Shown: positions 20,249-33,780 of the stretch, piece after piece | How the letters are laid out: the number at the start of each line of letters is the position of its first letter | Position numbering within the stretch: the stretch's first letter is position 1 | Assembly (NCBI GenBank): GCA_017429425.1 | Contig: JAFROY010000002.1 | Span: 495,317-559,316 of the forward strand | Reading direction: 5' to 3' | Length of the DNA stretch: 64,000 nt | Origin: Bacteroidales bacterium | GTDB taxonomy: Bacteria; Bacteroidota; Bacteroidia; Bacteroidales; UBA932 | Program-made: the position numbers and the translations under genes | The notes under the pieces: generated by a model | Databases searched by the model: none | The model's input: only the letters and a program-made list of their open reading frames with translations | Told to the model about the DNA's origin: nothing

Positions 20249-20392
20249 TTGATAATCAATAACTTACGGAATCAATCGACAGGTTCGGCTAACTACGGTT
20301 TATTGAATACAAATCTAAGCAAAAACTGCCCGTTCGGCAATATGACAACGAAAAGTAGTATGAAAACCGTTTAAAAGTTGGGAGAAAAGTAT

Positions 20393-20400
20393 TATCTTTG
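20393..20400 (+). promoter_or_regulatory. -7 box TATCTTTG for the fic gene
   Basis: TAnnTTTG 15 nt upstream of ATG 20416. Confidence 0.5.
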
Positions 20401-20415
20401 CATTGTTAAGTTACT

Positions 20416-21444
20416 ATGGCAATGGACAGGATGGATCAACTGATGGCTCTGATTGAGCGTTATAAGCAATTGGGTATTGACTCGCAGATAGACTATGAGA
20501 AGTTCTACCTGTACTCGATCATCACACACTCCACAGCCATTGAAGGGTCGACGGTGACTGAGATTGAGAACCAGTTGCTTTTCGATGAAGGCATTTCAGC
20601 CAAAGGGAAAACCATCGTTGAGCAGATGATGAACCTTGACCTGAAGCGAGCCTACGAAGAGAGCATCCGACTGGCGAAGCATCATACTGATATTACCATA
20701 GACATTTTAAAAGAGTTGTCGCACCTGGTGATGCAGAATACCGGATCCACGTACAAGACGGCTCTTGGGGACTTCTCTTCCGCCAATGGTGACCTTCGTC
20801 TGGTGAATGTGACCGCTGGCGTCGGTGGGAGATCCTACATGAGTTACCAGAAGGTTCCTGCCAAACTGCAGGACTTTTGTGACTGGCTCAATGAGAAGCG
20901 AAAACGTCCGATGTCCTTACAGGAGCGCTATAACTTGAGTTTTGAGGCACATTATCGCCTGGTGACTATCCATCCCTGGGCAGACGGGAACGGCCGTATG
21001 GCACGGCTCATCATGAATTTTATCCAGTTCGAATTCGGACTGGTTCAGGCCAAGGTCCTCAAAGAAGATAAAGGCGATTATATCAATGCACTCATAACTA
21101 CCCGGGACACGGATGACATCTCCCATTTCCTGGAATTCATGACCGGGGAAATGATAAAGACCCTGTATTCAGACATCGATGCCTTCCTCAAGTCGATGAA
21201 TGGAGGTGGGGAGATAACCCGAGTTAGTGGGAAGAAAAAGCCGAAAAGTAGGGAGAAAATCCTCTACCTTCTCGAGGAGCATTCAGACTACTCAGCGCGT
21301 AAGTTGTCGGAAGTTATAGGGATAACGCAGAAAGCTGTCGAGAAGCATCTTTCCAAACTGAAGGCTGAAGGGCTAATCAGGCGTGACGGCCCTGACAAGG
21401 GCGGGAAATGGGTTGTGATATCCAGCTCAAAGAGAACCAAATAA
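20416..21444 (+). CDS. Fic-family AMPylase with N-terminal inhibitory-type motif and C-terminal wHTH
   Basis: Core HPWADGNGRMAR (HxFx[DE]GNGRxxR with W for F). Upstream STAIEG fits the [ST]xxxE[GN] inhibitory helix. The C-terminal segment of about 80 aa looks like a winged helix. Confidence 0.85.
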   Translation: MAMDRMDQLMALIERYKQLGIDSQIDYEKFYLYSIITHSTAIEGSTVTEIENQLLFDEGISAKGKTIVEQMMNLDLKRAYEESIRLAKHHTDITIDILKELSHLVMQNTGSTYKTALGDFSSANGDLRLVNVTAGVGGRSYMSYQKVPAKLQDFCDWLNEKRKRPMSLQERYNLSFEAHYRLVTIHPWADGNGRMARLIMNFIQFEFGLVQAKVLKEDKGDYINALITTRDTDDISHFLEFMTGEMIKTLYSDIDAFLKSMNGGGEITRVSGKKKPKSREKILYLLEEHSDYSARKLSEVIGITQKAVEKHLSKLKAEGLIRRDGPDKGGKWVVISSSKRTK

Positions 21445-21560
21445 TAATACTGAAAACGGGTTTTCCGCACGAATAAGTAGCGGAGTCGCCACCTTGACAC
21501 AAAGCGCCCCGGCAATCCTCCTGGACTGTCGGGGCCTAGGTTACACCGATAAATGGGAAT

Positions 21561-21863
21561 TTAACTGTTTTTCTTTTTTGCCCATGTATTGGCAAGAATG
21601 ACCACAACGATAATCAAAACCAAAGTAAGACCAAAGAAAGCACCTGTCGCCGCAAAAGACTCATCTCCAAGCAAGAGTAACATCATTGGAGCCAATACAA
21701 TCAACAAGCCGCCAATCAAACCCCGAAGACGCTTGACATTGTATAGCGACCGTTCTTCTTTTGATGCGGTGTTGTAACCGGCAATCAGATTATCCCCCTT
21801 ACCGATAAGTACGATTATGCCCATGATGAGAAAGATGGCAGCAAGAATAATCAAAACAATCAT
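21561..21863 (-). CDS. Small three-TM membrane protein (DUF3784-like)
   Basis: 100 aa with the pattern GDNLIAGYNTASKEERSLYNVKRL between hydrophobic helices. A -7 box lies 22 nt upstream. Confidence 0.6.
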   Translation of the reverse strand: MIVLIILAAIFLIMGIIVLIGKGDNLIAGYNTASKEERSLYNVKRLRGLIGGLLIVLAPMMLLLLGDESFAATGAFFGLTLVLIIVVVILANTWAKKKNS

Positions 21864-21884
21864 ATCAATTCCGATTTATCGAAG

Positions 21885-21892
21885 CAAAGTTA
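21885..21892 (-). promoter_or_regulatory. -7 box TAACTTTG (minus strand) for the DUF3784-like gene
   Basis: TAnnTTTG 21 nt upstream of ATG 21863. Confidence 0.45.
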
Positions 21893-22182
21893 CGCAATTT
21901 CTACCACATACCCAAGCGGTCACCATAGCGGAAGCGCTCTATGCTTCTCGATGAAATTTCGTACCATTGCCACCGGAGGTCTGATGCCAGACTTCTATTG
22001 TTAACACCCGGTGCGTTTCTGCTGCCATGCGGGGACGCACCTTATTACCTGCATCGGTAAATGGAGGGGTTTTTGTGGCATTATTTTTGCAGCACGATTC
22101 TTTGAGATTTCCCGAACTGGATTTGGACTAAGAATCATTTTACAACCGTGTGCGACTGGACGCCGGCATCCCCAATGTCAAC

Positions 22183-23187
22183 ATGAAAAGATTATATATC
22201 ATAACAGGAGCTAACGGACACCTGGCGAGTACGATAATAAGATATCTCTCCCGGGAAAACTGTCTGGTTAGAGGATTGCTGCTGCCGAAGGAAAGCCACG
22301 AAGACACGGGGAGCATTACCTATTTCAAAGGGGATGTCACCGATCCCGTCTCAATGGAAGAGATCTTTTCCGGAATGGATGGTTACGAAGTAACCGTTAT
22401 CCATGCGGCGGGTCTGGTGTCGATTGAAGACAATATTACACCTGAGCTTTATTCCGTCAACGTCAACGGGACGAGGAATGTAATATCGATGTGCCGGAAG
22501 CATCATGTGCGGCGGATGCTTTATGTCAGTTCGGTGCATGCGATTCCCGAAGGCGATGGACAGTCGGTGATACATGAAATCAATTCCTTCTCGAAAGAAA
22601 GAGTCAAAGGGGGATATGCCATCACCAAGGCAGAAGCGACCCAATCTGTTATGGACGCGGTCAACGATGGTCTTGACGCAGTTGTCGTACACCCATCCGG
22701 TATCGTCGGACCGTTTGACGACGGGCGGAATCATATCATCCAACTGATTAAGACATTTCTGGACGGAAAACTGCTTGGAAGTGTTACCGGCGGTTATGAC
22801 TTTGTAGATGTCCGGGATGTCGCCAAGGGTTGTCTCTTCGCAGCAGACAAAGGCAGAAGAGGCGAGTGTTACATCCTTTCCAATCAGTATATTACCATTT
22901 CAGAACTCATCAATTATCTAGGTGTGTTGACTGGCAAGAGAGTGCCACCCTGTTTCCCGCTCTCAGCCATCAAATGCCTCGCACCTGTCTTCAGTTGGAT
23001 TGGAAAGATCACACACAAACGCCCCTTATTCACACGTTACTCCCTGAACGTCCTGGGAGAGAATGCGCATTTTTCACACGAGAAGGCAACAAGGGAATGG
23101 GGATACTCCCCAATAGATATCTGGGACTCCATTCGCGACACCGTCCGGTATTTGCGATACGGTGAAAAATCAATTGCCCTGGTGTGA
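22183..23187 (+). CDS. NAD-dependent epimerase/dehydratase-family SDR (dihydroflavonol-reductase-like)
   Basis: ITGANGHLAS Rossmann block and catalytic YAITK (YxxxK). The track start 22150 is GTG, so ATG 22183 (MKRLYIITGANG) is used. Confidence 0.8.
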   Translation: MKRLYIITGANGHLASTIIRYLSRENCLVRGLLLPKESHEDTGSITYFKGDVTDPVSMEEIFSGMDGYEVTVIHAAGLVSIEDNITPELYSVNVNGTRNVISMCRKHHVRRMLYVSSVHAIPEGDGQSVIHEINSFSKERVKGGYAITKAEATQSVMDAVNDGLDAVVVHPSGIVGPFDDGRNHIIQLIKTFLDGKLLGSVTGGYDFVDVRDVAKGCLFAADKGRRGECYILSNQYITISELINYLGVLTGKRVPPCFPLSAIKCLAPVFSWIGKITHKRPLFTRYSLNVLGENAHFSHEKATREWGYSPIDIWDSIRDTVRYLRYGEKSIALV

Positions 23188-23739
23188 ATGTTCAGTAATT
23201 ATTTAAGAGTAACTCGACCAATGGATTATACCTGGCATTATGAGTCCCCGCTTGGAGGGATTACACTCGGCAGCGATGGAGAAGCACTTGTCGGGCTGTG
23301 GTTCGACGGGCAGAAACACTTCGCTGATGTACTGGAAACGGAGCATCAGGAGAAGTTGTTGCCAGTCTTTGAAGACGCCTGCAGATGGCTGGATATCTAT
23401 TTTGGCGGCAAGGCCCCGGACTTTACGCCAAAGCTAAAGATGCGCACGACGCCTTTCCGCAAAGCGGTGTGGGAGATTTTGCTTTCCATTCCGTTCGGAC
23501 ACGCCATGACTTACGGCGAAATCGCCGCACGGATAGCAAAGGATAACGGTCTGAAACAAATGTCTGCACGTGCTGTAGGTGGCGCCGTAGGGCACAATGC
23601 CATCTCCCTTATCATTCCGTGCCATCGGGTGATAGGATCCAGTGGAAATCTCACGGGTTACGCGGGTGGCATTGACAAGAAAGTCCGCTTACTCCAGATG
23701 GAACGGTTTACTTTTTCGCTCAGGTGTTGGCCAGGATAA
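23188..23739 (+). CDS. ogt: Methylated-DNA--protein-cysteine methyltransferase
   Basis: Active site PCHRVIGSSG and the TYGEIAARIA helix. ATG 23221 (MDYTWHYESPLG) is an alternative start. Confidence 0.85.
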   Translation: MFSNYLRVTRPMDYTWHYESPLGGITLGSDGEALVGLWFDGQKHFADVLETEHQEKLLPVFEDACRWLDIYFGGKAPDFTPKLKMRTTPFRKAVWEILLSIPFGHAMTYGEIAARIAKDNGLKQMSARAVGGAVGHNAISLIIPCHRVIGSSGNLTGYAGGIDKKVRLLQMERFTFSLRCWPG

Positions 23740-23764
23740 GCACAACAGTACAAGCCACCAGCGT

Positions 23765-24397
23765 TTAGTTATGTTCGAACCTTCTCTTCAGGAATACTTT
23801 TGCTTTGGCGAAAGACTTTCTTGGAGTGCTTCCCATCAGGTAATGGACGCTGAACTGCAGGCACATAAAGCCTCCGATGAAGCACAAAATTCCCCAGAGC
23901 CACTGTAAGCCGAGATAATCAACATTGCGGTTAATCAGAATAATAGCCCAGATGGAATAGCCCGCCATCAGCATGGCGGTATACCAGCCCGGTGAAACGC
24001 CCTTAAGATGGAACAGAAAGATGCCCATATTGTGGACAAAACCCTCGAAGAGTCCCAGGATGAGGACTGCGAATGTGAGCCACAACTGATTAGGAAACAA
24101 GAGTGCCAGCGAGAATATAACTGTGATATAGACTGCCTGCCCGATGTGTGTTCGCCCTGCCGGAGTAAGTGCCCGATGGTCTATCTGCAGCATCCTTCCT
24201 GCCATCAAATCCAGAAATCTGCCCTTATACCCCTCTTCATACTCGTGAACAATCAACCAAGCGTACATGCCGAGCGCAATCTTTTGGACCAGCAGCAGAT
24301 TCTGCCAGTTGCATATGCCCCATACAGCCCATCCCAGAAAGATGAGCGTCATGATATAGATATTCTTCTTAAGTAGCCAGAGCCCAAGCTTTTTCAT
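23765..24397 (-). CDS. HXXEE-domain membrane protein
   Basis: Polytopic protein with a HEYEEGY (HXXEE) motif. The track start is TTG, so ATG 24397 (MKKLGLW) is used. Confidence 0.6.
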   Translation of the reverse strand: MKKLGLWLLKKNIYIMTLIFLGWAVWGICNWQNLLLVQKIALGMYAWLIVHEYEEGYKGRFLDLMAGRMLQIDHRALTPAGRTHIGQAVYITVIFSLALLFPNQLWLTFAVLILGLFEGFVHNMGIFLFHLKGVSPGWYTAMLMAGYSIWAIILINRNVDYLGLQWLWGILCFIGGFMCLQFSVHYLMGSTPRKSFAKAKVFLKRRFEHN

Positions 24398-24409
24398 AAT
24401 TATCAAGTT

Positions 24410-24934
24410 CTATTCGATGCTTTTAAGCCACTTTTCTACTTTGGATTTTCCAGTGCGGACTTCGTGACCGTAAATAGCGAAGCCTTTGGTGACTTTTGCT
24501 CCGGGGAATGCTTCTTTCACATCCTCGACGCAATTCGCCAAACCACTGCCTTCGTGGGTCGTAAACGGAATGACGGTCTTCCCGTCCAGATTGATATCCT
24601 TGAACAGCGTAAACATCACCTGAGGATAGGTTCCCCACCAGACGGGACCTCCTATAAAGACTGTATCATATTTCGACAGATCCGGCGCCTCACCCTCGTA
24701 GGGCGGCAATTCGCCTTTGCGCGCTTCCTCTTTGGCCAGTTTGATGAGCGGATTGTATGACATCCCGTCATACTTATGAGTAACAATTTCAAACTGGTCT
24801 GCTCCAGTGATTTCACTAATGTAGTCAGCTACAATTTTCGTATTGCCGACCTCGATGTTTCCCACGCTGTAGTTATCGCCTGCGTGAGAAAAGAAAATAA
24901 CAATTGCAGTCATCAGAGAAAAGAAATAATTCAT
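24410..24934 (-). CDS. Flavodoxin-family protein (cytoplasmic; start uncertain, 24934 or 24913)
   Basis: VIFFSHAGDNYSVGNIEVGNTKIVADYI corresponds to the beta1/P-loop of long flavodoxin-like proteins. GGPVWWGTYP and TTHEGSG blocks are also present. Confidence 0.75.
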   Translation of the reverse strand: MNYFFSLMTAIVIFFSHAGDNYSVGNIEVGNTKIVADYISEITGADQFEIVTHKYDGMSYNPLIKLAKEEARKGELPPYEGEAPDLSKYDTVFIGGPVWWGTYPQVMFTLFKDINLDGKTVIPFTTHEGSGLANCVEDVKEAFPGAKVTKGFAIYGHEVRTGKSKVEKWLKSIE

Positions 24935-24946
24935 AAACAAAACAGT

Positions 24947-25249
24947 TTACTCGATTGTTTCAAGATAGAAGCTGAACGGACGGAAGCCGTCGTTGCAGCT
25001 GATCATTGCGCTCATCGGGTTTTTCATCCAGCCGTCGAAGAAGTTGCCCTCTCCCCTTGCCAGGGATTCAACAAATTCGCGCATTGAACTCCACGCGGAC
25101 GGGCACATGCCTTCTGGGCACTTGCCGTCCAGGGAGATCCACGTCTGCCCCTCCACCACATCGCACGTGTGCTCGATAGGGTTCTCATATTTCGCCATCA
25201 AATCGGGATAAACGGTCTGACGGACGGCCGTGATTCTGACCTTATTCAT
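24947..25249 (-). CDS. TIGR04076-family small Cys-rich protein
   Basis: MNKVRITAVRQTVYPDL...CPEGMCPSAW...CNDGFRPFSF matches my recollection of TIGR04076. A longer ORF from ATG 25300 is possible. Confidence 0.55.
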   Translation of the reverse strand: MNKVRITAVRQTVYPDLMAKYENPIEHTCDVVEGQTWISLDGKCPEGMCPSAWSSMREFVESLARGEGNFFDGWMKNPMSAMISCNDGFRPFSFYLETIE

Positions 25250-25273
25250 GTCTACAAATATACGTTTTTTCTG

Positions 25274-25281
25274 TATTTTTG
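25274..25281 (+). promoter_or_regulatory. -7 box TATTTTTG for the lipoprotein flavin-reductase / DUF362 pair
   Basis: TAnnTTTG 27 nt upstream of ATG 25309. Confidence 0.5.
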
Positions 25282-25308
25282 CAGAGTACATCAAATACAT
25301 AATGCGTC

Positions 25309-25980
25309 ATGAAACGTCTCACTTTTATCTGCCTGATGGCATCGATCCTGCTCTCAGGCTGCAAAACGAGCAATAACAACACTCCGCCTATGAATATGAA
25401 TCAACCCCTTCAGGAGGTGGCCGGGCGCAAGAATTTCGGCGCACAGCACGCTCTTGTAACCACCCCCCAGCCCTGCGTGATGATTGCAACCTGGGATGAG
25501 AACAAGACACCCGACGTAATGATGGCAGCCTGGGCCGGCCAACTGGATTACAATCAGATTGTCATCAGCCTGTCCCCGCACAAAACCACCGACAACCTTG
25601 CTTTGACCGGCGCTTTCACCATCAGCTTTGCCGATGAGCGCACGGTGGCCGAATCCGACTATTTCGGAATCGTCAGCGGCAACAAGGTGCCCGACAAAGT
25701 GGCCCGCGCAGGCTTCACCTTCATCCCCAGTCCCAACGTGGACGCGCCTATTATCAATGAGTATCCCCTCACCCTCGAGTGCAAGGTTGTCAGCTTTGAG
25801 GACGGCATGCTGATCGGCGAAGTGATCAACCAGAGTGCCGACGAGAGCATTCTCACCGATGGAAAGGTGGATCTCGCCAAACTGAAACCCGTCGTCTTTG
25901 ACGCGGCCGGAATGTGCTATCGCGCTCTCGGTGAGGTCGTTGGTCAGGCATGGGGATCCGGAAAAGCATTTATCAAATAA
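25309..25980 (+). CDS. Flavin-reductase-domain protein with lipoprotein signal peptide
   Basis: MKRLTFICLMASILLSGC has the lipobox LSGC, followed by a KTSNNNTPP linker. The rest resembles the FMN-binding split-barrel flavin reductase family. A -7 box lies 27 nt upstream. Confidence 0.7.
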   Translation: MKRLTFICLMASILLSGCKTSNNNTPPMNMNQPLQEVAGRKNFGAQHALVTTPQPCVMIATWDENKTPDVMMAAWAGQLDYNQIVISLSPHKTTDNLALTGAFTISFADERTVAESDYFGIVSGNKVPDKVARAGFTFIPSPNVDAPIINEYPLTLECKVVSFEDGMLIGEVINQSADESILTDGKVDLAKLKPVVFDAAGMCYRALGEVVGQAWGSGKAFIK

Positions 25981-25992
25981 TCCCGCCATACG

Positions 25993-26967
25993 ATGAAAAA
26001 GTTACTGATTGTACTGGCAGCGATGGCAATGGCATTGTCATCCTGCAAGCCCGCGACTTCTGTCGTATATTTCACGAAAGACATCTCTCCCGAAGGCCTG
26101 ATCAAAGTGTATGAGGCAATCGGCCTGGAAGCAACCGGAAAAGTTGCGGTCAAAATCTCCACGGGTGAATCCATGCAGAGCAACCACCTCCGCCCTGAAC
26201 TGATTGCTCCCTTCGTCAAGAGGGTGAACGGTACGCTGGTCGAGTGCAATACGGCGTATGCCGGCAACCGTCAGCAGTCAGCTGACCACTGGAGAACCAT
26301 TGAAGAACATGGCTATCTGGCCATCGCTCCGGTCGATATTATGGATGAGTACGCTGAAATCAGGATTCCGGTCAAAGACGACAAGTGGATCAAGTACGAT
26401 CTCGTAGGTTCACATATCCAGAACTATGACTTCATGATTAATCTGGCTCACTTCAAAGGCCATGCGATGGGTGGATTCGGCGGTGTGCTCAAGAACGCCT
26501 CCATCGGTGTGGCTTCCCGCAACGGCAAGACCTATATCCATACGGCCGGGAAGGCGGATGACTATAACCAGCTGTGGCAGAACCTGCCTGAAGGCTGGAT
26601 GGAGTCGCCTGAGAACAATACTCCTTTTATCGAATCCATGTCTGCGGCAGCACAGGCTGTTCACGATTATTTCAAGGGCAAAAAGGGAATCATCTACATC
26701 AACGTGATGAACAACCTCTCGATTGACTGTGACTGCGACGGCAACCCGCACGCCCCCACGATTCAGGATATCGGTATTGCCGCATCGCTCGACCCGGTTG
26801 CGCTCGACAAGTTCTGTCTGGACCAGGTCTTCAACCTGCCGAATGACGAGAACAACGACACCAAGGCCCTGCTTGAGCGCATCAACCAACGACACGGCAT
26901 CCGGATCGTCTATCGCGGCGAAGAAACCGGCCTGGGTACCACAAAGTACAAAGTGGTTGAACTATAG
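25993..26967 (+). CDS. DUF362-domain protein with lipoprotein signal peptide
   Basis: MKKLLIVLAAMAMALSSC has the lipobox LSSC. VVYFTKDISPEGLIKVYEAIG and HFKGHAMGGFGG are DUF362-type blocks, and a DCDCDG motif is present. The gap to the upstream gene is 12 nt. Confidence 0.65.
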   Translation: MKKLLIVLAAMAMALSSCKPATSVVYFTKDISPEGLIKVYEAIGLEATGKVAVKISTGESMQSNHLRPELIAPFVKRVNGTLVECNTAYAGNRQQSADHWRTIEEHGYLAIAPVDIMDEYAEIRIPVKDDKWIKYDLVGSHIQNYDFMINLAHFKGHAMGGFGGVLKNASIGVASRNGKTYIHTAGKADDYNQLWQNLPEGWMESPENNTPFIESMSAAAQAVHDYFKGKKGIIYINVMNNLSIDCDCDGNPHAPTIQDIGIAASLDPVALDKFCLDQVFNLPNDENNDTKALLERINQRHGIRIVYRGEETGLGTTKYKVVEL

Positions 26968-26981
26968 AAGATTCAGATAGT

Positions 26982-27704
26982 TTATCTGATAAAATGCATC
27001 GGCTCCCAAGGTTCGTCTGCACGGCCGGGAGCCGTTTTTCCGTTAGTTGCTTTCAGCAGCCAGGCCATATTGTTGGCCAGCGCCCGGACGGTCTGCAGTC
27101 CCTCTTTATCCAGTGAGGCGTCACCGGCCTCCATGCCATAAACGATGTTCCAGTACTGGGAGGTGACCACGGTCATATTCATCATCTCGAAGGGCATGTT
27201 CAATGTGTTGTAAGCCGCTGTGGCGCCGCCCCTGCGGCACACTGCAATAGCAGCGGCAGGCTTCCCGGCGATATTCGCGCCGTTGGAGTAGAATGCCCGC
27301 TGGATGACCGACATCACAGCGCCGTTGGGCTGTCCCCAATAAACGGGTGAACCTACGATCAGCGCATCACACTCTGCAAACTTGGCACTGATGCGGTTGC
27401 AGACATCGTCGTCAAAAATGCAGGCGCCCGGGGTTACCTTGCACTTGTTGCATGCGATACAGCCGCGGATGGGTTTCGTTCCTATCCAGAGCGTCTCACT
27501 GTCTATACCATTCTTTTTCAGCTGCTTGGCCACTTCGGCCAAAGCGATGGAAGTATTTCCCTTGGGCCTGGGGCTACCATTAATCAAAAGAACCTTCATA
27601 TGTTTCTTAACTTCATTGTTTGCAAGTGCTTCAGCGCCGGCAGCTGTGAGTAACATTCCCCCTGCAGCCAGGGCCGATTTTTCGATAAACTCTCTTCTGT
27701 CCAT
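26982..27704 (-). CDS. Tat-signal NADPH-dependent FMN reductase / iron-sulfur-flavoprotein-like protein
   Basis: MDRREFIEKSALAAGGMLLTAAGAEA is a twin-arginine signal. It is followed by KVLLINGSPRPKGNTS and the Cys block CIACNKCKVTPGAC. The track start is GTG, so ATG 27704 is used. Confidence 0.75.
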   Translation of the reverse strand: MDRREFIEKSALAAGGMLLTAAGAEALANNEVKKHMKVLLINGSPRPKGNTSIALAEVAKQLKKNGIDSETLWIGTKPIRGCIACNKCKVTPGACIFDDDVCNRISAKFAECDALIVGSPVYWGQPNGAVMSVIQRAFYSNGANIAGKPAAAIAVCRRGGATAAYNTLNMPFEMMNMTVVTSQYWNIVYGMEAGDASLDKEGLQTVRALANNMAWLLKATNGKTAPGRADEPWEPMHFIR

Positions 27705-27794
27705 AATCGATATTCGTTTCGCGAATATAACAATTATTCCACTCACAAGTTAACTACTAAACCTGCAAGAAGAGAATACCTGTTTATGAGGGTT

Positions 27795-28664
27795 CTAAAC
27801 GTTTGAGAGTATTTGTGAATTCCTGTACTCCAGCGGGGCAAGCCCCAAATGCTTCTTTACATACTTGCAAAAGAAACTGACATCCGGGAAATCCAACTTG
27901 AATGCGATTTCCTTGACGGAAAGGTCAGTTTGCAACAGGTAATACTTGATATGCCGGACGGTGTTTTCCGTAATCCAGTCCATGGCTGTACGTCCGCTCT
28001 TTTCCTTGCAGACTGCACTGAGGTACTTTGGGGTCACCACCAGCTGTTCGGCGTAGGCGCTGACCACCCGTTTGGTATTGTCAGGATGACTGAGCATGAC
28101 GATAAAGCGCTGGAACAGGCTGTCCTTCTTCGAAGTCTCCAGCAGCACCTGGTCCTCAATGCCTTCTTCCAGAAACTTCCAGTTGTCGAATTCGTGTAAA
28201 ATCTCGATGGCAGCAGCTTGCGACGTGAGTCTGATAATGCGCTGACGGTATGGATTGTCACTGTCTTCCATGTATGCCTTCAGGAGATTGAAATAGGCCA
28301 GGAACAGCTTTCGCTTGAACTCCGGGGCATGGATGACAGGGTTTTGCTTCAGGTAGAAAAACTTCTTCCAGCAATTTGGATCGATATGAAAAACATTGGG
28401 TAAAGTCTCGTCATACAGAGACTCCCCCACACAAATAACCTTCCCCTGTAAATCGGGCGTCCGCATATACATTCCCAGAATGTTGCGGGGTGCACAAACC
28501 ACCAGGTCTCCTTCTTCGGCACGATACATTTTCCCTTCAAGTGAAAACTGCAACACGCCTCTCTCGCAATAAAACGAGATGAAGAAGCTGGACATGGTCT
28601 CCGGCGCGATGTTGACCTCATCAATGTTATCTGAAATGACAAGGTCATTGAATGATTTCAGCAT
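27795..28664 (-). CDS. AraC-family transcriptional regulator
   Basis: 289 aa. The N-terminal part is cupin-like. The C-terminal double HTH includes YAEQLVVTPKYLSAVCKE and FPDVSFFCKYVKKHLG. Confidence 0.85.
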   Translation of the reverse strand: MLKSFNDLVISDNIDEVNIAPETMSSFFISFYCERGVLQFSLEGKMYRAEEGDLVVCAPRNILGMYMRTPDLQGKVICVGESLYDETLPNVFHIDPNCWKKFFYLKQNPVIHAPEFKRKLFLAYFNLLKAYMEDSDNPYRQRIIRLTSQAAAIEILHEFDNWKFLEEGIEDQVLLETSKKDSLFQRFIVMLSHPDNTKRVVSAYAEQLVVTPKYLSAVCKEKSGRTAMDWITENTVRHIKYYLLQTDLSVKEIAFKLDFPDVSFFCKYVKKHLGLAPLEYRNSQILSNV

Positions 28665-28811
28665 GATTGGTCATTTTTCTACAAAGAAACGAACATTTTT
28701 CCGAGAGGCCAATGGCATAAAACTCCTTTTATGTTTTCCTTATTTCTTCTCTGCGAAATAAAGACTATAAAAAAGGAAGTTTGGGCATGGCAGTTTCCAT
28801 ATGAATGACCC

Positions 28812-28819
28812 TACTTTTG
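28812..28819 (+). promoter_or_regulatory. -7 box TACTTTTG for the CDP-alcohol-PT operon
   Basis: TAnnTTTG 20 nt upstream of ATG 28840. Confidence 0.5.
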
Positions 28820-28839
28820 TATCATTCAATTAGATAGGG

Positions 28840-29544
28840 ATGAAAATGAAATCGTCAGAACAATCCGTAAGAATCCAAACTTCGCTGCTGAACGGGGTCG
28901 AGAAGAAGGTCTTGCTGTGGCTGGCAAAGCGCCAGCCGAAGTGGGTTGACCCCGACTTCCTGACGCTTATAGGATTCATAGGCGCGCTGGTCATTGCAGC
29001 AGGCTACATCTTATCGAACTGCAATGCGAACTACTTGTGGCTGGCCTCACTGGGTTTCGTCATCAACTGGTACGGCGATTCGCTTGACGGAACATTGGCC
29101 CGCTATCGGAAACGGCAGCGTCCCGTATACGGCTTTTATCTCGATCACACCATGGACGCCATCAATGAGACGATTATGTTCATGGGGGTGGGAATATCCC
29201 CTTTCATGCGTTTCGACCTGTCGTGTATCCTTTTGATCCTGTACCTGATGCTGACCCTCAATGTCGCGATGAATGCGCACCTCAGAGGCGAATTCCGCTT
29301 AACATATGCCAAATTGGGCCCTACTGAATTCCGTCTGATCTGCATCATTGCCAACACCGTGCTGGTGTTCTCACAACGGCTGAGAACCTGGGCGATGGAA
29401 CTACAGTGGTTCTCTTCAAGGTTTGAACTGCATATCCTTGATATTCTTGGGGGCTTCATTCTTCTCGTACTGGTGTTGATTTATCTCGTGACCATCATCC
29501 AGGATGCCCGCTATTATGCGAAAACCGATCCGAAGAACAAATAA
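28840..29544 (+). CDS. CDP-alcohol phosphatidyltransferase-family membrane protein
   Basis: The signature GDSLDGTLARYRKRQRPVYGFYLDHTMD is the D-x2-DG-x2-AR...G-x3-D-x3-D motif. The protein is polytopic. A -7 box lies 20 nt upstream. Confidence 0.8.
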   Translation: MKMKSSEQSVRIQTSLLNGVEKKVLLWLAKRQPKWVDPDFLTLIGFIGALVIAAGYILSNCNANYLWLASLGFVINWYGDSLDGTLARYRKRQRPVYGFYLDHTMDAINETIMFMGVGISPFMRFDLSCILLILYLMLTLNVAMNAHLRGEFRLTYAKLGPTEFRLICIIANTVLVFSQRLRTWAMELQWFSSRFELHILDILGGFILLVLVLIYLVTIIQDARYYAKTDPKNK

Positions 29545-30005
29545 TGAATAAATCGGCGAAAGCATTGTTGCTCCGATTCCCCAAGTTCGTTGCAGGCAAC
29601 TTGTCGGGGACTCTCGTGGACACACTCGTTCTGTGGGTTTTCTCACACCTCGTGTTTCATTCTTACGTCGGCAAAATGATTGTCTCCCCCGCCATCTCTT
29701 TTGAGTTTGCGGTCTTTACCAACTTTGTCGTTTCCTACAATATGACATGGAGAGACCGTATCTCGCAACGGTCAATCAAATCGTTCTTCAGGCACTACGG
29801 GGCTTACAATATCTCCTGTACGGTGGGATTCCTGATCAAAATGGGTATGCTTCTGTTGATACAGGCGCTGTCGAAATGGGATGTAGTGATATGTAACTTA
29901 TTGGCACTGTGTGTGTCAGGAACCTATAACTTCATGATGAACGAAATGGTTGTTTTCAGAAAAAGAAAGACATGCAATGACGCTGATTACGATGGAAGAT
30001 ATTGA
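29544..30005 (+). CDS. GtrA-family membrane protein
   Basis: 153 aa with four TM segments, starting FPKFVAGNLSGTLVDTLVLWVF, which is typical of GtrA. TAATG overlap with the upstream stop. Confidence 0.75.
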   Translation: MNKSAKALLLRFPKFVAGNLSGTLVDTLVLWVFSHLVFHSYVGKMIVSPAISFEFAVFTNFVVSYNMTWRDRISQRSIKSFFRHYGAYNISCTVGFLIKMGMLLLIQALSKWDVVICNLLALCVSGTYNFMMNEMVVFRKRKTCNDADYDGRY

Positions 30006-30810
30006 AAGCGTTTTACCGGTATTCAAAGGAAAAGTCGGAAACGGACTCGCACGTTCGCTGACGCGGATTACGGGAATCGATCAGTTGTCGGACCGCTATG
30101 ACCGGCACGAAAACCTCGCCGGTCCGGAATTCGTCAGCGCCTTCTTGAAGGACCTGGACCTGAATTACCAGGTACAGGGCCTGGAACACTTGGAGCAGGT
30201 GCTCGACGGCCCCTTCATTACCGTCAGCAACCACCCCTACGGAGGCCTGGACGGGTTGGTCCTTATTGATCTGTTCGGGAAATATCGGAAAGATTATAAA
30301 GTACTGGCCAACAAGTTTCTTTCAACGGTGGGTACAATCAAGGACAATTTTATCTGCGTAGTACCGAATACGGGTAGATCCAGCGGAATAGCGAGAGAAA
30401 GCATCTCCGGTACAAAGAAGGCGATTGAACATATTAACGGAGGCCACCCTCTCGGTCTCTTTCCTTCGGGTGCGGTGTCAGATTACAGTTTCAAGGATTG
30501 TTGTGTGCGGGACCGGGAATGGCAAAAGGGATCGCTCCGTCTTGTCAGAAAGATGATGGTGCCCGTCGTTCCCGTGCATTTCTTTGACCAAAACTCAAGC
30601 CTCTTTTACTTTTTAGGCTTGATAAGCTGGAAAATCCGGGTCTTGCGCCTCCCCAGGGAAATACTCAACAAGAAAGGCAAAACCATCCGTCTGGGTATAG
30701 GCCCCATTATCTCAGTGGAAGAGCAAAGTCGATATGGACGGATTGAAGAATATGGCAGGATGTTGAGAAATTCTGTCTATGGCATCGAGTATCATTTGAA
30801 CAATACATGA
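29977..30810 (+). CDS. Lysophospholipid acyltransferase-family protein (GlsA/OlsA-like O-acyltransferase)
   Basis: The SNHPYGGLDG block is an acyltransferase His-Asp motif, and FPSGAVS lies downstream. The track start 29950 is TTG, so ATG 29977 is used. It overlaps the end of gtrA by 29 nt. Confidence 0.7.
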   Translation: MTLITMEDIESVLPVFKGKVGNGLARSLTRITGIDQLSDRYDRHENLAGPEFVSAFLKDLDLNYQVQGLEHLEQVLDGPFITVSNHPYGGLDGLVLIDLFGKYRKDYKVLANKFLSTVGTIKDNFICVVPNTGRSSGIARESISGTKKAIEHINGGHPLGLFPSGAVSDYSFKDCCVRDREWQKGSLRLVRKMMVPVVPVHFFDQNSSLFYFLGLISWKIRVLRLPREILNKKGKTIRLGIGPIISVEEQSRYGRIEEYGRMLRNSVYGIEYHLNNT

Positions 30811-31949
30811 ATATGATAGTGACCATTAAAGAAGTTAAGACAATGAAGGATCTGCGGGCGTTTGTCCATTTCCCCAACGAACTATACAAGGACAACCCCT
30901 ATTACGTTCCGCAAATTGAGTCGATGGAGAGGGACACCCTGACTCCGTCAAAGAACAGAGCGTTTGAAGTCTGTGAAGGAAAATATTGGCTGGCATTCAA
31001 CGACAAAGGAAAGATTGTCGGGCGTGTGGCAGGGATTATTAATCACAAGTACAACAATAAGATCAAAGAAAAAACCTGCCGCTTCGGCTGGATTGATTTC
31101 GTGGATGATTGCAATGTTTCCAGGGCATTGATGCAGAAGGTTGAGCAATATGCGCGCGAAAACGGAATGAATACCATCAGCGGACCGATGGGATTTCTGG
31201 AGTTTGACGCGGCCGGAATCCTGGTGGAGGGTTTCGATAAACTCCCAACTGCGTACGGAAAATACAATGCGCCCTACTATGAATCACATCTTCTGGCCTT
31301 GGGTTATCTGAAAGAGGTCGATTTTGTGGAGTATCTCATCCTGATTCCTGAAGTTATTCCGGACCGCTACGCGCAAATGTCCAAGATTGTTGAAGAAAAA
31401 TTCGGTTTGCGACAGGCTGTTCTCCGTCGGCATAGCGATATCAATCAGTACGCGGACGGAGTCTTCAGATGCCTGAATTCAGCCTATTCACATCTCCATG
31501 GTTTCTCAGAACTGACGCCCGGTCAATGTGAAGATTTGAAAAAACAATTTCTGAGCAATATAAGCGTAGACTACCTTTCCATCATTCTCGACTCCCATGG
31601 ACAAGTCGTAGCATTCGGCGTTGCACTGCCCTCGCTCTCCAAGGCTATGCAAAAAGCCAACGGGAATCTCTTGCCGTTTGGTTTTGTACACATCTTGAAA
31701 GCCTTACGGCAAAACGACACTCTGGATGTACTTCTAATAGCGATTGATAACCAGTACAAAAACAAAGGAGTAATCGCAATGATTTTTGACAAGTTCGCTC
31801 AGGGTGTAACAAAAAACGGCATCAAGTATATCGAATCTACGCGGGAACTGGAAGACAACACCAGCGTACAGAACCTCTGGCGCTACTTTGAACGCGATTT
31901 GACCAAGCGGGCCAGAATCTATAAAAAGAACCTGAAAACCAGGCGCTAA
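30807..31949 (+). CDS. Uncharacterised 380-aa protein, probable GNAT-fold acyltransferase
   Basis: ATGA overlap with the upstream stop. The N-terminal FVHFPNELYKDNPYYVPQI block and internal GRVAGIINHKYN / IAIDNQYKNKG recall a GNAT-like family that I cannot name. The functional call is weak. Confidence 0.4.
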   Translation: MNMIVTIKEVKTMKDLRAFVHFPNELYKDNPYYVPQIESMERDTLTPSKNRAFEVCEGKYWLAFNDKGKIVGRVAGIINHKYNNKIKEKTCRFGWIDFVDDCNVSRALMQKVEQYARENGMNTISGPMGFLEFDAAGILVEGFDKLPTAYGKYNAPYYESHLLALGYLKEVDFVEYLILIPEVIPDRYAQMSKIVEEKFGLRQAVLRRHSDINQYADGVFRCLNSAYSHLHGFSELTPGQCEDLKKQFLSNISVDYLSIILDSHGQVVAFGVALPSLSKAMQKANGNLLPFGFVHILKALRQNDTLDVLLIAIDNQYKNKGVIAMIFDKFAQGVTKNGIKYIESTRELEDNTSVQNLWRYFERDLTKRARIYKKNLKTRR

Positions 31950-32896
31950 GGACGGGGTTCGCCGTAGAAGCGCATCCAGACGGCATCCTGAAGCTCCTCC
32001 GGGAGGCCGCGGAGGAAGGAACGGGTCGTATTCTTGGGAAAATCGCTGTAACGCAGGAAAATCAAGCCCGGAAGGGTGTTGTTGAAGTACGGATCCACTT
32101 CGAAACAGACGAGTTTCGCGCCGTTTTCCAGATAGATGCGCACCAGGACCGGCATCCGGTATTTTCCGTCAGAGAGCTTTTTCATCGTGATATCGAGTTC
32201 CCCGATTTCTCCGGGAGGAATCTGCAGATCGTCCGGATTCAAAGAGCCGAAATCCGGCACGAAGGGGTGCTCGGGCGTGGCAATCTGATCGGCATCCGGC
32301 ATCCGGTAATACTTCTGGATATAGTCAGCCATCAGGCTCTTGTAGAGATCAGGAATGTCGTTGCTGATGCTGACTGGCCCCGAAAAGAACTCCATTTCCG
32401 GATATCTCAGCGATGATACGCCGAGTCCGGTCAGCAGCATGCGCAGCGGCTGGATTTCACGCTGGTATTTCTGAACGATAAAGGAACGGCCGAGTTCCAT
32501 GGTTTTGTTAAGCAGCGAAGGGGCCTTCTCCCCATATTTATAGAGCGTAGAGGTATAGAAACCGGATACGCCGCCGTGATCTTTCATGATCTCCGGACCG
32601 AATCCCAGACGGTATGCGCCGACGATTTCCCGCTTCGAAATGTTCCAGAGAATCATCTGCTCATAGTAGGCGTCGAATTCGTCCGTATCCATGGCATGTC
32701 CTGTCCCCTCGCCGACTGCGCGGAAAGTCTTCTCGCGGAGCCGGTACAGCTCACGCATGACAAGCGGAGCTTCCGAAGTCGGAATCAGGTAAGCCCTGTA
32801 GTCTCCAATCTCAAAAAGAATCCGGTGATCCAGTTTGGCCATTTCGGCGCGGATTTCTTTCGCGGGGGTCTTTTTTGCCAGCCGTTCTTTTTTCAT
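31946..32896 (-). CDS. OlsB/GlsB-type N-acyl amino-acid synthase (Acetyltransf_5 GNAT)
   Basis: LYRLREKTFRAVGEGTGHAMDTDEFDAYYEQMILWN...IVGAYRLGFG is the LRxxxF...D.DxFD...vGxYRL pattern of OlsB-like N-acyltransferases. Length is 316 aa. Confidence 0.65.
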   Translation of the reverse strand: MKKERLAKKTPAKEIRAEMAKLDHRILFEIGDYRAYLIPTSEAPLVMRELYRLREKTFRAVGEGTGHAMDTDEFDAYYEQMILWNISKREIVGAYRLGFGPEIMKDHGGVSGFYTSTLYKYGEKAPSLLNKTMELGRSFIVQKYQREIQPLRMLLTGLGVSSLRYPEMEFFSGPVSISNDIPDLYKSLMADYIQKYYRMPDADQIATPEHPFVPDFGSLNPDDLQIPPGEIGELDITMKKLSDGKYRMPVLVRIYLENGAKLVCFEVDPYFNNTLPGLIFLRYSDFPKNTTRSFLRGLPEELQDAVWMRFYGEPRP

Positions 32897-32908
32897 ATAC
32901 TTTAACTT

Positions 32909-33748
32909 TCAATCAATCAAAATATTGCCTTCAGCCACAATGGCAGCTGTGCCACCTACGTAAAGGGTTCCGTCAGATTTCAGACGCGTGGTGATTACGG
33001 AAGGTCTTCCCATAACTTCACCCTGAAGAAAACGGTAATCACCGGGACAGGAAACATGCATATTTTGCGCCAAAAAACAGGTAAGCGCAGCATTGGCCGT
33101 ACCGGTGGCAGACTCTTCAGGGACGCCGTAAAGCGGTGCAAAATCCCGCACATGTGCGGTATAGCCATCTCCAGCCTGTACAAAAGCGTGAATACTGACG
33201 GCATTAAGACGCTTTGTGAGGTCCGAAACGGCCTTCATGTCCGGTTGCAGGGCATTCAGTTCTTCCAGCGTGGCGACGGGCAGCATGATGTCAGGCAGGC
33301 CGGCATATACGATCTGCGGTCGCAACGCGGTGGGTTTTGCTCCGACGGCCCGGTAGGCTGCCGCAATATCTGTTTCGCTCAAAGTGCTGACGATGCGCGG
33401 GGCGGCCATCTGCATCAGTACCTGGGGGCCGGCCTCGATGGTCAGATCGCCCGCAAGGGTGTGGCAGAGGCAGTTACCCTGCACATTCTTCCGCTGATGA
33501 AGCAGATGAAAGGAGGCAATCGTAGCATGTCCGCACAATTCCACTTCCGCTTTGGGGGTGAAATAGCGGAGCGTAAACTCACGGCCGGCATCCTGGCGCA
33601 CGAAAGCCGTCTCGCTGAACCGCAGTTCCGCCGCGACCAGAAGCATCAGCCTCTCTTCCGGATAGTCTTTCCCCTCCAGCAGCACTACGCCAGCTGGATT
33701 ACCGCCGAAAGGACGGTCCGTAAAAGCGTCGACAATGAAGAATTTCAT
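32909..33748 (-). CDS. PhzF-family isomerase
   Basis: MKFFIVDAFTDRPFGGNPAGVVLL start and a SETAFV block. The track start is TTG, so ATG 33748 is used. Confidence 0.85.
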   Translation of the reverse strand: MKFFIVDAFTDRPFGGNPAGVVLLEGKDYPEERLMLLVAAELRFSETAFVRQDAGREFTLRYFTPKAEVELCGHATIASFHLLHQRKNVQGNCLCHTLAGDLTIEAGPQVLMQMAAPRIVSTLSETDIAAAYRAVGAKPTALRPQIVYAGLPDIMLPVATLEELNALQPDMKAVSDLTKRLNAVSIHAFVQAGDGYTAHVRDFAPLYGVPEESATGTANAALTCFLAQNMHVSCPGDYRFLQGEVMGRPSVITTRLKSDGTLYVGGTAAIVAEGNILID

Positions 33749-33772
33749 CGTCACAAAAATAAAAAAAGATTG

Positions 33773-33780
33773 CAAAAATA
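33773..33780 (-). promoter_or_regulatory. -7 box TATTTTTG (minus strand) for phzF-like gene
   Basis: TAnnTTTG 24 nt upstream of ATG 33748. Confidence 0.4.

Follow-up and report, generated by a model that had tools for sequence, protein, structure and literature searches.

An overlapping four-gene operon

We describe a candidate sphingolipid operon in a 64,000-nucleotide stretch of DNA from an uncultured Bacteroidales bacterium of the rumen (GTDB lineage UBA932; assembly GCA_017429425.1, contig JAFROY010000002.1, forward-strand positions 495,317 to 559,316), referred to hereafter as the window. The open reading frame (ORF) listing and a direct reading of the junctions place four plus-strand genes at 28840-31949, overlapping or abutting behind a single -7 box. 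In order, they encode a CDP-alcohol phosphotransferase of 234 aa (28840-29544; PF01066, 34.4 bits against a cut-off of 22), a GtrA-family small membrane protein of 153 aa (29544-30005; PF04138, 51.6 bits against 26.1, residues 14-138 being aligned to profile positions 1-117), a stand-alone GlsA/OlsA-like O-acyltransferase of 277 aa (29977-30810; PF19576, 77.5 bits, and PF01553, 40.7 bits) and a tandem-GNAT N-acyltransferase of 380 aa (30807-31949), which has a weak PF00583 match (23.7 bits) and is homologous to YghO of the bacterial ceramide synthase (bCerS) family. A stand-alone OlsB/GlsB-like N-acyltransferase gene of 316 aa (31946-32896, minus strand) converges on the fourth gene.

All of the junctions are tight. 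The stop codon of the transferase gene (TAA, 29542-29544) and the start of the GtrA gene (ATG, 29544-29546) have base 29544 in common, giving a TAATG junction at 29542-29546. The GtrA gene stops with TGA at 30003-30005, and the acyltransferase frame is open from a TTG at 29950, with in-frame ATGs at 29977 (a 29-nt overlap with GtrA) and at 29992 (a 14-nt overlap). The acyltransferase stop and the start of the 380-aa gene overlap in an ATGA at 30807-30810, and a further in-frame ATG of the latter follows at 30813. The stop of this last gene (TAA, 31947-31949) shares two bases with that of the convergent 316-aa gene, whose TAG is the reverse complement of 31946-31948. Positions 28812-28819 of the plus strand are the Bacteroidota -7 box, TACTTTTG, 20 nt 5' of the first ATG, and TANNTTTG has a single plus-strand occurrence between 25.3 and 33.7 kb, namely this same box. 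With 30 matches to the -7 motif in the window against 19.5 expected, and the motif being short, the box alone is weak evidence of a promoter. On re-reading, everything that the preliminary description of this DNA had reported of the layout holds: the four overlapping or abutting genes, the -7 box, the TAATG, 29-nt and ATGA overlaps and the overlap of the convergent stops. Its names for the five protein families likewise agree with the Pfam matches.

Protein families and conserved linkage to sphingolipid genes

The 380-aa protein aligns end to end with E. coli K-12 YghO (residues 2-376 against 12-390, 29% identity, E 2e-45), and YghO (yghO, ECD_02850) is listed as a homologue of Caulobacter CC_1154, the ceramide N-acyltransferase (PMC9386255). 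Because of this homology, and with the equivalence of YghO and CC_1154 taken from that paper, we assign the protein to the bCerS/YghO ceramide synthase family, of which it is, by homology, a tandem-GNAT member. Its AlphaFold2 (AF2) model (pLDDT 85.3) has a tandem GNAT fold, the nearest solved structures being tandem-GNAT amine N-acyltransferases (glucosamine N-acetyltransferase, MAB_4324, MshD, Eis and FemX). We propose from the homology and the model that the protein would N-acylate sphinganine or 3-ketosphinganine. No NCBIfam model recognises it, a PDB sequence search returned no match, and its relatives, of which there are thousands in Bacteroidales at ~374 aa, bear no informative names. 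As a full-length YghO homologue it resembles the N-acyltransferase of the Spt-bCerS-CerR ceramide pathway (CC_1162/CC_1154/CC_1164 in Caulobacter; Spt/YghO in E. coli B); unlike in that pathway, identity to YghO is only 29% and there are several bCerS paralogues per genome. One of these, a 372-aa protein 35% identical to that of the window, is encoded in the same genome outside the window (L124:4043-7716, equal to G000:C2:412042-415715), directly 3' of the fatty acid kinase genes FakA and FakB (DegV), in what looks like a three-gene operon. Judging by these neighbours, it may use acyl-phosphate or exogenous fatty acids.

The genomic setting of the relatives connects this enzyme with sphingolipid synthesis. 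We took 80 loci around relatives of the 380-aa protein and clustered their ORFs; the sources were metagenome-assembled genomes of rumen Bacteroidales, some labelled 'Candidatus Limimorpha', and some neighbour genes were labelled solely by BLAST to typed proteins. In 20 of the 80 loci an orthologue (71-76% identity) is followed directly by genes for a serine palmitoyltransferase (Spt) and a short-chain dehydrogenase/reductase (SDR) resembling 3-ketodihydrosphingosine reductase (KdsR). The former is of the CFB type (654.6 bits against a cut-off of 640), and the best model for the latter is 3-ketodihydrosphingosine reductase (323.9 bits, cut-off 400). This is similar to what is known from Bacteroides, where Spt is BT_0870 and the KDS reductase, which the SDR resembles, is BT_0972. 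Five loci (L016, L019, L026, L031 and L033) carry a complete run of transferase, GtrA, acyltransferase, bCerS, Spt and KdsR on one strand, and in two more (L030 and L110) GtrA is separated from the transferase by Spt-KdsR. The GNAT-like protein had been thought to add or acylate an amino acid, an idea that gives way here to a bCerS/YghO family protein whose orthologues share operons with Spt and a KdsR-like reductase.

In 47 of the 80 loci the transferase and the bCerS orthologue are neighbours, in one of two orders: transferase-(GtrA)-acyltransferase-bCerS or bCerS-transferase-(GtrA)-acyltransferase. Since it recurs this often and in two orders, the linkage of the four genes is more than chance. 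Linkage of all five genes in other genomes, as envisaged in the preliminary description, is borne out for these four; none of the 80 loci has the OlsB-like gene. We also drew 151 genomes from across Bacteroidales, mostly from different families and with the window's own included. At least 14 families in this set have a bCerS/YghO homologue directly adjoining Spt. In the rest of the order, the transferase has as its partner the acyltransferase (L111, L112, L118, L119, L121 and L123) or GtrA (L113, L115, L120, L122 and L123), and adjacency of transferase and acyltransferase extends to seven Bacteroidales families. A locus from another order of Bacteroidia (L149) combines Spt, a bCerS-like gene, an NAD-epimerase, the transferase and GtrA; the epimerase-family reductase is of the CerR type and in this resembles Caulobacter CerR. 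Five loci from other Bacteroidia orders (L151, L152, L153, L155 and L158) have a unit of SDR, PhyH-type (phytanoyl-CoA dioxygenase-like) dioxygenase, transferase and GtrA, in which the dioxygenase may be a lipid hydroxylase.

The transferase and Spt also occur together more widely than side by side. Among 49 other genomes of the genus, taking transferase matches at E 1e-30 or better and Spt matches of at least 608 bits, 20 have both genes, three the transferase alone (these are 60, 78 and 89% complete), four Spt alone and 22 neither (Fisher p = 5e-7). Order-wide, Spt is present in 11 of 14 transferase-positive genomes versus 35 of 136 negative ones (p = 1.5e-4); both p-values overstate the association, as related genomes are not independent. 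The pattern within the genus implies repeated joint gain or loss of the transferase and Spt.

The 234-aa transferase has a complete CDP-alcohol phosphotransferase (CAPT) motif, D80-x2-D83-G84-x2-A87-R88-x9-G98-x3-D102-x3-D106. Thirteen family members all keep residues D80, D83, G84, A87, G98, D102 and D106, and R88 is replaced by tyrosine in one subfamily. This subfamily (L118-L123) reads AY for AR in DG-x2-AR (alignment A1, columns ~100-110, window residues 80-90) and keeps an arginine two residues later. Against the models for PIP/archaetidylinositol-phosphate synthases NF045883, NF040950 and NF052561 (BT_1523) the transferase scores 34.4 bits versus a cut-off of 170, 45.8 versus 180 and 19 versus 350, respectively. 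A profile built from the 13 members finds human CEPT1/CHPT1 at E 8.9e-13 to 8.7e-10 over ~200 residues and PIP synthases at 0.018-0.74, with PgsA and PSS absent from the matches. The top four Foldseek hits to the AF2 model (pLDDT 85.6) are of the group of CEPT1, CHPT1 and diacylglycerol-bound yeast CPT1 (TMq 0.57-0.74), followed by AF2299 and PIPS, and PgsA and PSS are far lower. A search of the ESM Atlas returned only clusters named 'CDP-alcohol phosphatidyltransferase family'. By profile and predicted fold, the transferase appears closest to Kennedy-type choline/ethanolamine phosphotransferases, which is a resemblance and not proof of membership, and on its scores it is a distinct family. 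That it is not a housekeeping phospholipid synthase agrees with the role first sketched for it: it falls below the PIP, AIP and BT_1523 cut-offs, and its nearest relatives are CEPT1/CHPT1 and not PG or PS synthases. Two other PF01066 genes are present in the genome, at ~69 bits each.

The likeness to CEPT1/CHPT1, CPT1 and the Drosophila ceramide phosphoethanolamine synthase (CPES) thus consists of the CAPT motif and the best profile and fold matches. CPES is a CDP-alcohol phosphotransferase acting on ceramide (PMC9550178) and shows that ceramide can serve as an acceptor. Unlike these enzymes, that of the window is bacterial, has 234 aa versus ~380-400, shares 17-23% identity with them and belongs to a family paired with or fused to GtrA. 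Natural fusions occur in both orders among the representatives of 50%-identity clusters (GtrA-transferase, P0161; transferase-GtrA, P0264). Another protein, P0240 (553 aa), has an N-terminal CDP-alcohol transferase domain followed by ~370 residues with no Pfam match.

Two bacterial systems with a comparable enzyme bear on the head group. In the Caulobacter ceramide (di)phosphoglycerate pathway (CpgB kinase, CpgD CDP-glycerate synthase and CpgA), a sphingolipid cluster likewise includes a CDP-alcohol-transferase-family enzyme: CC_1159/CpgA has this domain, takes part in ceramide phosphoglycerate synthesis and is thought to use CDP-glycerate (PMC11324152, PMC12275187). We liken the transferase to CpgA by description only. 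The Caulobacter step differs in that it extends an existing phospho-head group, and no ceramide kinase or CpgD-like cytidylyltransferase is linked to the genes studied here. The second system is the inositol lipid cluster BT_1522-BT_1526, in which a CDP-alcohol transferase, the PIP synthase BT_1523, is paired with the GtrA-motif protein BT_1524, much as in the window. An inositol head group was considered and rejected, both on the PIP, AIP and BT_1523 scores, which are far below cut-off, and on the distribution of the inositol-phosphate synthase MIPS (PF01658). The latter is found in 21 of the 151 genomes, overlapping one weak transferase match, and in one of 15 transferase-positive genomes when the window's is included. 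These are also the points on which the locus differs from the Bacteroides inositol clusters, and the head group transferred is probably not inositol.

The 277-aa acyltransferase carries the motif NHPYGGLD, which is H-x5-D and not a strict HX4D. It scores 140.6 bits against the N-half of OlsF (cut-off 620) and 116.5 bits against GlsA (NF053697, cut-off 260), shares 31% identity with the N-terminal half of a fused OlsF-like protein encoded in the same genome, and gave only spurious matches in a PDB sequence search. The characterised relatives, OlsA, GlsA and OlsF (N-half), place an ester-linked chain on the 3-hydroxyl of a 3-hydroxy fatty acid that is itself bound as an amide, and the dihydroceramides of Bacteroidota contain amide-linked iso-17:0(3-OH). 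Dihydroceramides (DHC) with the corresponding extra chain have been described: P. gingivalis phosphoglycerol-DHC has variants that bear a further iso-15:0 esterified on the amide-linked chain, and Tf GL2 of T. forsythia is a phosphoinositol-DHC with an ester-linked 15:0 (PMC4587543). By analogy, the acyltransferase of the operon is probably an acyloxyacyl-forming enzyme acting on an amide-linked 3-hydroxy fatty acid. Stand-alone homologues of it (39-44% identity) adjoin MIPS in four clusters, L125-L128 (G059:C66, G114:C4, G170:C136 and G138:C4), whose CDP-OH transferase, LPG-synthase-TM, HAD hydrolase and MIPS genes mark them as the alternative inositol lipid cluster of B. vulgatus type. This gives the locus a further likeness to the B. 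vulgatus-type cluster, for which Heaver 2022 (PMC9246714) names no such acyltransferase. Another homologue adjoins Spt in L129.

A proposed sphingolipid pathway and the alternatives

We suggest, with a probability of about 0.6, that 28840-31949 is one operon building and decorating a sphingolipid, in which a bCerS acts together with an acyloxyacyl-forming O-acyltransferase and a Kennedy-type ceramide phospho-alcohol transferase working with GtrA. What the sequences show is family membership, operon structure, conserved linkage and co-occurrence with Spt; for the substrates, the order of the steps, what GtrA does, and which head group and CDP donor are used, we infer the following scheme. The 380-aa bCerS-family enzyme would N-acylate a long-chain base to give a (dihydro)ceramide, the acyl group in Bacteroidota typically being a 3-hydroxy fatty acid. 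The GlsA/OlsA-like O-acyltransferase would then esterify a further fatty acid onto the 3-hydroxyl of this amide-linked chain, as its aminolipid relatives do with lyso-ornithine and lyso-glycine lipids. The transferase, with GtrA as membrane partner, would finally take a phospho-alcohol from a CDP-activated donor and place it on the C1 hydroxyl of the ceramide. The product would be a three-chain phosphorylated dihydroceramide of the type known from P. gingivalis (acylated phosphoglycerol-DHC) and T. forsythia (acylated phosphoinositol-DHC). More tentatively, and at slightly less than even odds, the transferase-GtrA pair might be a widespread, previously unassigned Kennedy-type ceramide phospho-alcohol synthase, with the GlsA-like acyltransferase making three-chain phosphorylated dihydroceramides.

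If true, this would fill two steps of Bacteroidota sphingolipid synthesis. Steps beyond SPT are described as uncharacterised in Bacteroidetes (Heaver 2022, PMC9246714). The literature that we searched assigns only SPT, the KDS reductase, the kinase, bCerS and the inositol cluster, and names no enzyme for non-inositol phospho-head groups or for the ester-linked third acyl chain. The locus and its relatives offer co-conserved candidate genes for the head-group and third-chain steps, and these can be tested by expression in genetically tractable Bacteroides. The transferase is also a candidate functional partner for the GtrA-family proteins found in lipid clusters. The lipids themselves matter to the host: phosphorylated dihydroceramides of oral Bacteroidota, including P. 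gingivalis, are reported to be pro-inflammatory (PMC4587543), and two further papers report that Bacteroidota sphingolipids reach host tissues and modulate inflammation (PMC10056535, PMC11087976).

Several observations weigh against the sphingolipid reading. Neither Spt nor the reductase was found in the window's own assembly, which is 55% complete, and in the window neither of them adjoins the operon. The bCerS/YghO family is found in 129 of the 151 genomes of the order versus 46 of 151 for Spt, and, being so much the commoner, membership of it is no proof of ceramide synthesis. In the fold search, CEPT1/CHPT1 are ahead of AF2299 and PIPS by a narrow E-value margin. As for GtrA, a B. thetaiotaomicron deletion mutant lacking BT_1524, which has the GtrA motif, showed no lipid phenotype (PMC9246714). 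Neighbourhood clustering of the related loci found no cytidylyltransferase conserved near the module, and counts of PF01467 and PF12804 genes in the genus do not track the transferase; with no cytidylyltransferase linked or co-varying, the transferase might use CDP-diacylglycerol as its donor instead. One PF01467 match lies near the gene trio of G175; this cytidylyltransferase-like domain is N-terminal in a protein of 1274 aa, has guanylate kinase and YicC genes for neighbours, and looks unrelated.

A last point on the same side is that seven carriers of the transferase and acyltransferase are without a canonical Spt, so that in such lineages the module may act on capnine-type or scavenged bases. 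Six of these genomes (G005 and G183-G187) have a bCerS-transferase-acyltransferase trio and no Spt above cut-off, only Kbl and a second Spt-like gene. The seventh, the 100%-complete G046, has an adjacent acyltransferase-transferase pair, bCerS-family homologues elsewhere in the genome and one Spt-like gene of ~421 aa. Second Spt-like genes of this kind (~420-445 aa, roughly 275-310 bits) are present in every relative examined (G001-G005, G183-G187, G046, G111, G129 and G177). That of G005 encodes a 421-aa alpha-oxoamine synthase scoring 549 bits against A. finegoldii SulA (7u7h) and 522 bits against cysteate-C-fatty acyltransferase (28eh), and is followed by an SDR (L095:608-2718, minus strand). 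It is of the SulA/CapB type and points, by homology, to a sulfonolipid pathway. With their SulA-like genes, these rumen and gut Bacteroidales lineages are probable sulfonolipid producers, both those with Spt and those without it.

It is against this background that an alternative has to be weighed, in which the module acts on another long-chain amine lipid, either an N-acyl capnine sulfonolipid or scavenged bases that other members of the rumen community supply. Capnine or ketocapnine would then be N-acylated by the bCerS-family enzyme, with the transferase and the acyltransferase modifying the product. The Spt-less carriers, the SulA-type genes and the excess of bCerS/YghO over Spt are all consistent with it, and PMC9304779 names no enzyme for the N-acylation step of sulfonolipids. 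However, C1 of capnine bears a sulfonate and so offers no C1 hydroxyl to a phospho-alcohol. The SulA-type gene, moreover, is present with or without the module and does not co-vary with it, whereas Spt does, and the six-gene operons join the module to Spt and KdsR, not to SulA. We therefore regard this alternative as unlikely. The persistence of bCerS-family enzymes and of the module in SulA-positive, Spt-less genomes does raise the question of whether the sulfonolipid and sphingolipid pathways share tailoring enzymes.

The transferase could also be a Kennedy-type glycerophospholipid synthase acting on diacylglycerol, and the acyltransferase a lysophospholipid remodeller, with both merely sharing regulation or membrane-homeostasis logic with sphingolipid genes. 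Diacylglycerol is indeed the substrate of the closest solved relatives, CEPT1, CHPT1 and CPT1; an acyl-CoA ligase, a PlsC-like acyltransferase and a patatin-like lipase lie downstream in L006-L009; and the carriers without Spt fit as well. Set against this are the tracking of Spt by the transferase within the genus, the position of the transferase between Spt-KdsR and bCerS in several operons, and the placement of the acyltransferase in the GlsA/OlsA-OlsF clade, which works on amide-linked 3-hydroxy fatty acids, and not with PlsC proper. Such a role is, on balance, distinctly improbable.

The convergent OlsB-like gene and the surroundings of the operon

The preliminary description had made the convergent 316-aa gene a partner of the operon in an aminolipid pathway. 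This OlsB-like protein matches PF13444 (70.9 bits), the C-half of OlsF (NF052615; 191.7 bits versus 620) and GlsB (NF053696; 119.1 versus 300). In 24 genomes of the same genus it has no orthologue, the best matches being the C-halves of fused ~620-aa proteins (38-47% identity). Its GC content is 0.537 versus 0.446-0.499 for the four operon genes. In metagenome contigs, this layout of operon and OlsB-like gene recurs only within the same species (99% identity). Of eight more distant relatives, at 70% and 50% identity, seven follow an O-acyltransferase-like part of their own on the same strand, 34-40% identical to the acyltransferase of the operon, and the locus of the eighth begins too near a contig end for such a part to be visible; this O-acyl half, present ahead of the gene in its relatives of 50-70% identity, has been lost in the window. 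On linkage, orthology, GC and the architecture of its relatives, the OlsB-like gene is ruled out as a pathway partner, and we judge it to be an unrelated neighbour outside the conserved module.

The genome's aminolipids have an enzyme of their own. A fused 613-aa OlsF-like protein, encoded on its other contig (C1, L001:598-2439), scores 373 bits versus 620 for OlsF, is also below the GlsA and GlsB cut-offs, and is 40% identical in its C-half to the OlsB-like protein. Fused forms of ~600 aa are OlsF-like aminolipid enzymes.

The acyltransferase and the OlsB-like protein do resemble GlsA/GlsB, OlsF and OlsA-OlsB, being homologous to their O- and N-modules, and the chemistry that we propose for the acyltransferase is taken from these systems. 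Neither protein is an orthologue of GlsA or GlsB, both being well below the equivalog cut-offs, and the two genes do not form a GlsA/GlsB-style arrangement: they converge across an intervening gene and are not conserved as a pair, whereas the acyltransferase is co-conserved with the transferase and sphingolipid genes. Of the aminolipid head-group elaboration first put forward for the locus, the N-acylation, the ester-linked chain and the phospho-alcohol on a lipid hydroxyl stand, and what falls is the lipid class, given the bCerS assignment and the linkage to Spt and KdsR, along with the fifth gene. The remaining alternative, that the locus elaborates a GlsB/OlsB-type aminolipid (a glycine or serine-glycine lipid of the lipid 654/1256 type), with the OlsB-like enzyme making an N-acyl amino acid, the acyltransferase adding a piggy-back chain, the GNAT protein an amino acid and the transferase a phosphatidyl or phospho-alcohol group, could draw on the 1.1 kb that separate the two homologues and on an OlsB-like gene that, without its O-acyl half, might borrow the acyltransferase of the operon, but is highly improbable in view of the scores and conservation just given, the separate OlsF-like enzyme, and a 380-aa protein that belongs to a family linked to Spt and KdsR and is no amino-acid ligase.

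The OlsB-like gene lies 12 nt 3' of a PhzF-family isomerase gene on the same strand (31946-33775, minus strand, for the two). In the closest relatives of the operon (L006:8288-11630, and also L007-L009), bCerS is followed by genes for the acyl-CoA ligase, PlsC-like acyltransferase and patatin-like phospholipase, in the place where the window has the OlsB-like and PhzF genes.

On its other side the operon is divergent from an AraC-family regulator gene (27795-28664, minus strand; PF12833, 66.9 bits). An AraC homologue holds the same divergent position beside the transferase or GtrA gene in L006-L009, L028, L030, L039, L109, L110 and L147, and the gene is a candidate regulator of the operon. The operon lies within a block of low GC (20249-31949; 0.485 versus 0.56 in the flanks), the OlsB-like gene lying outside it. 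Copies of the transferase in other GTDB families (G175 and G150) and in L006-L009 share 74-80% identity with that of the window, and copies from its own genus at most 64%. As the operon sits in a low-GC block and its transferase is closer to copies from other families than to those of its own genus, lateral acquisition of the AraC gene and the operon as a unit is suggested.

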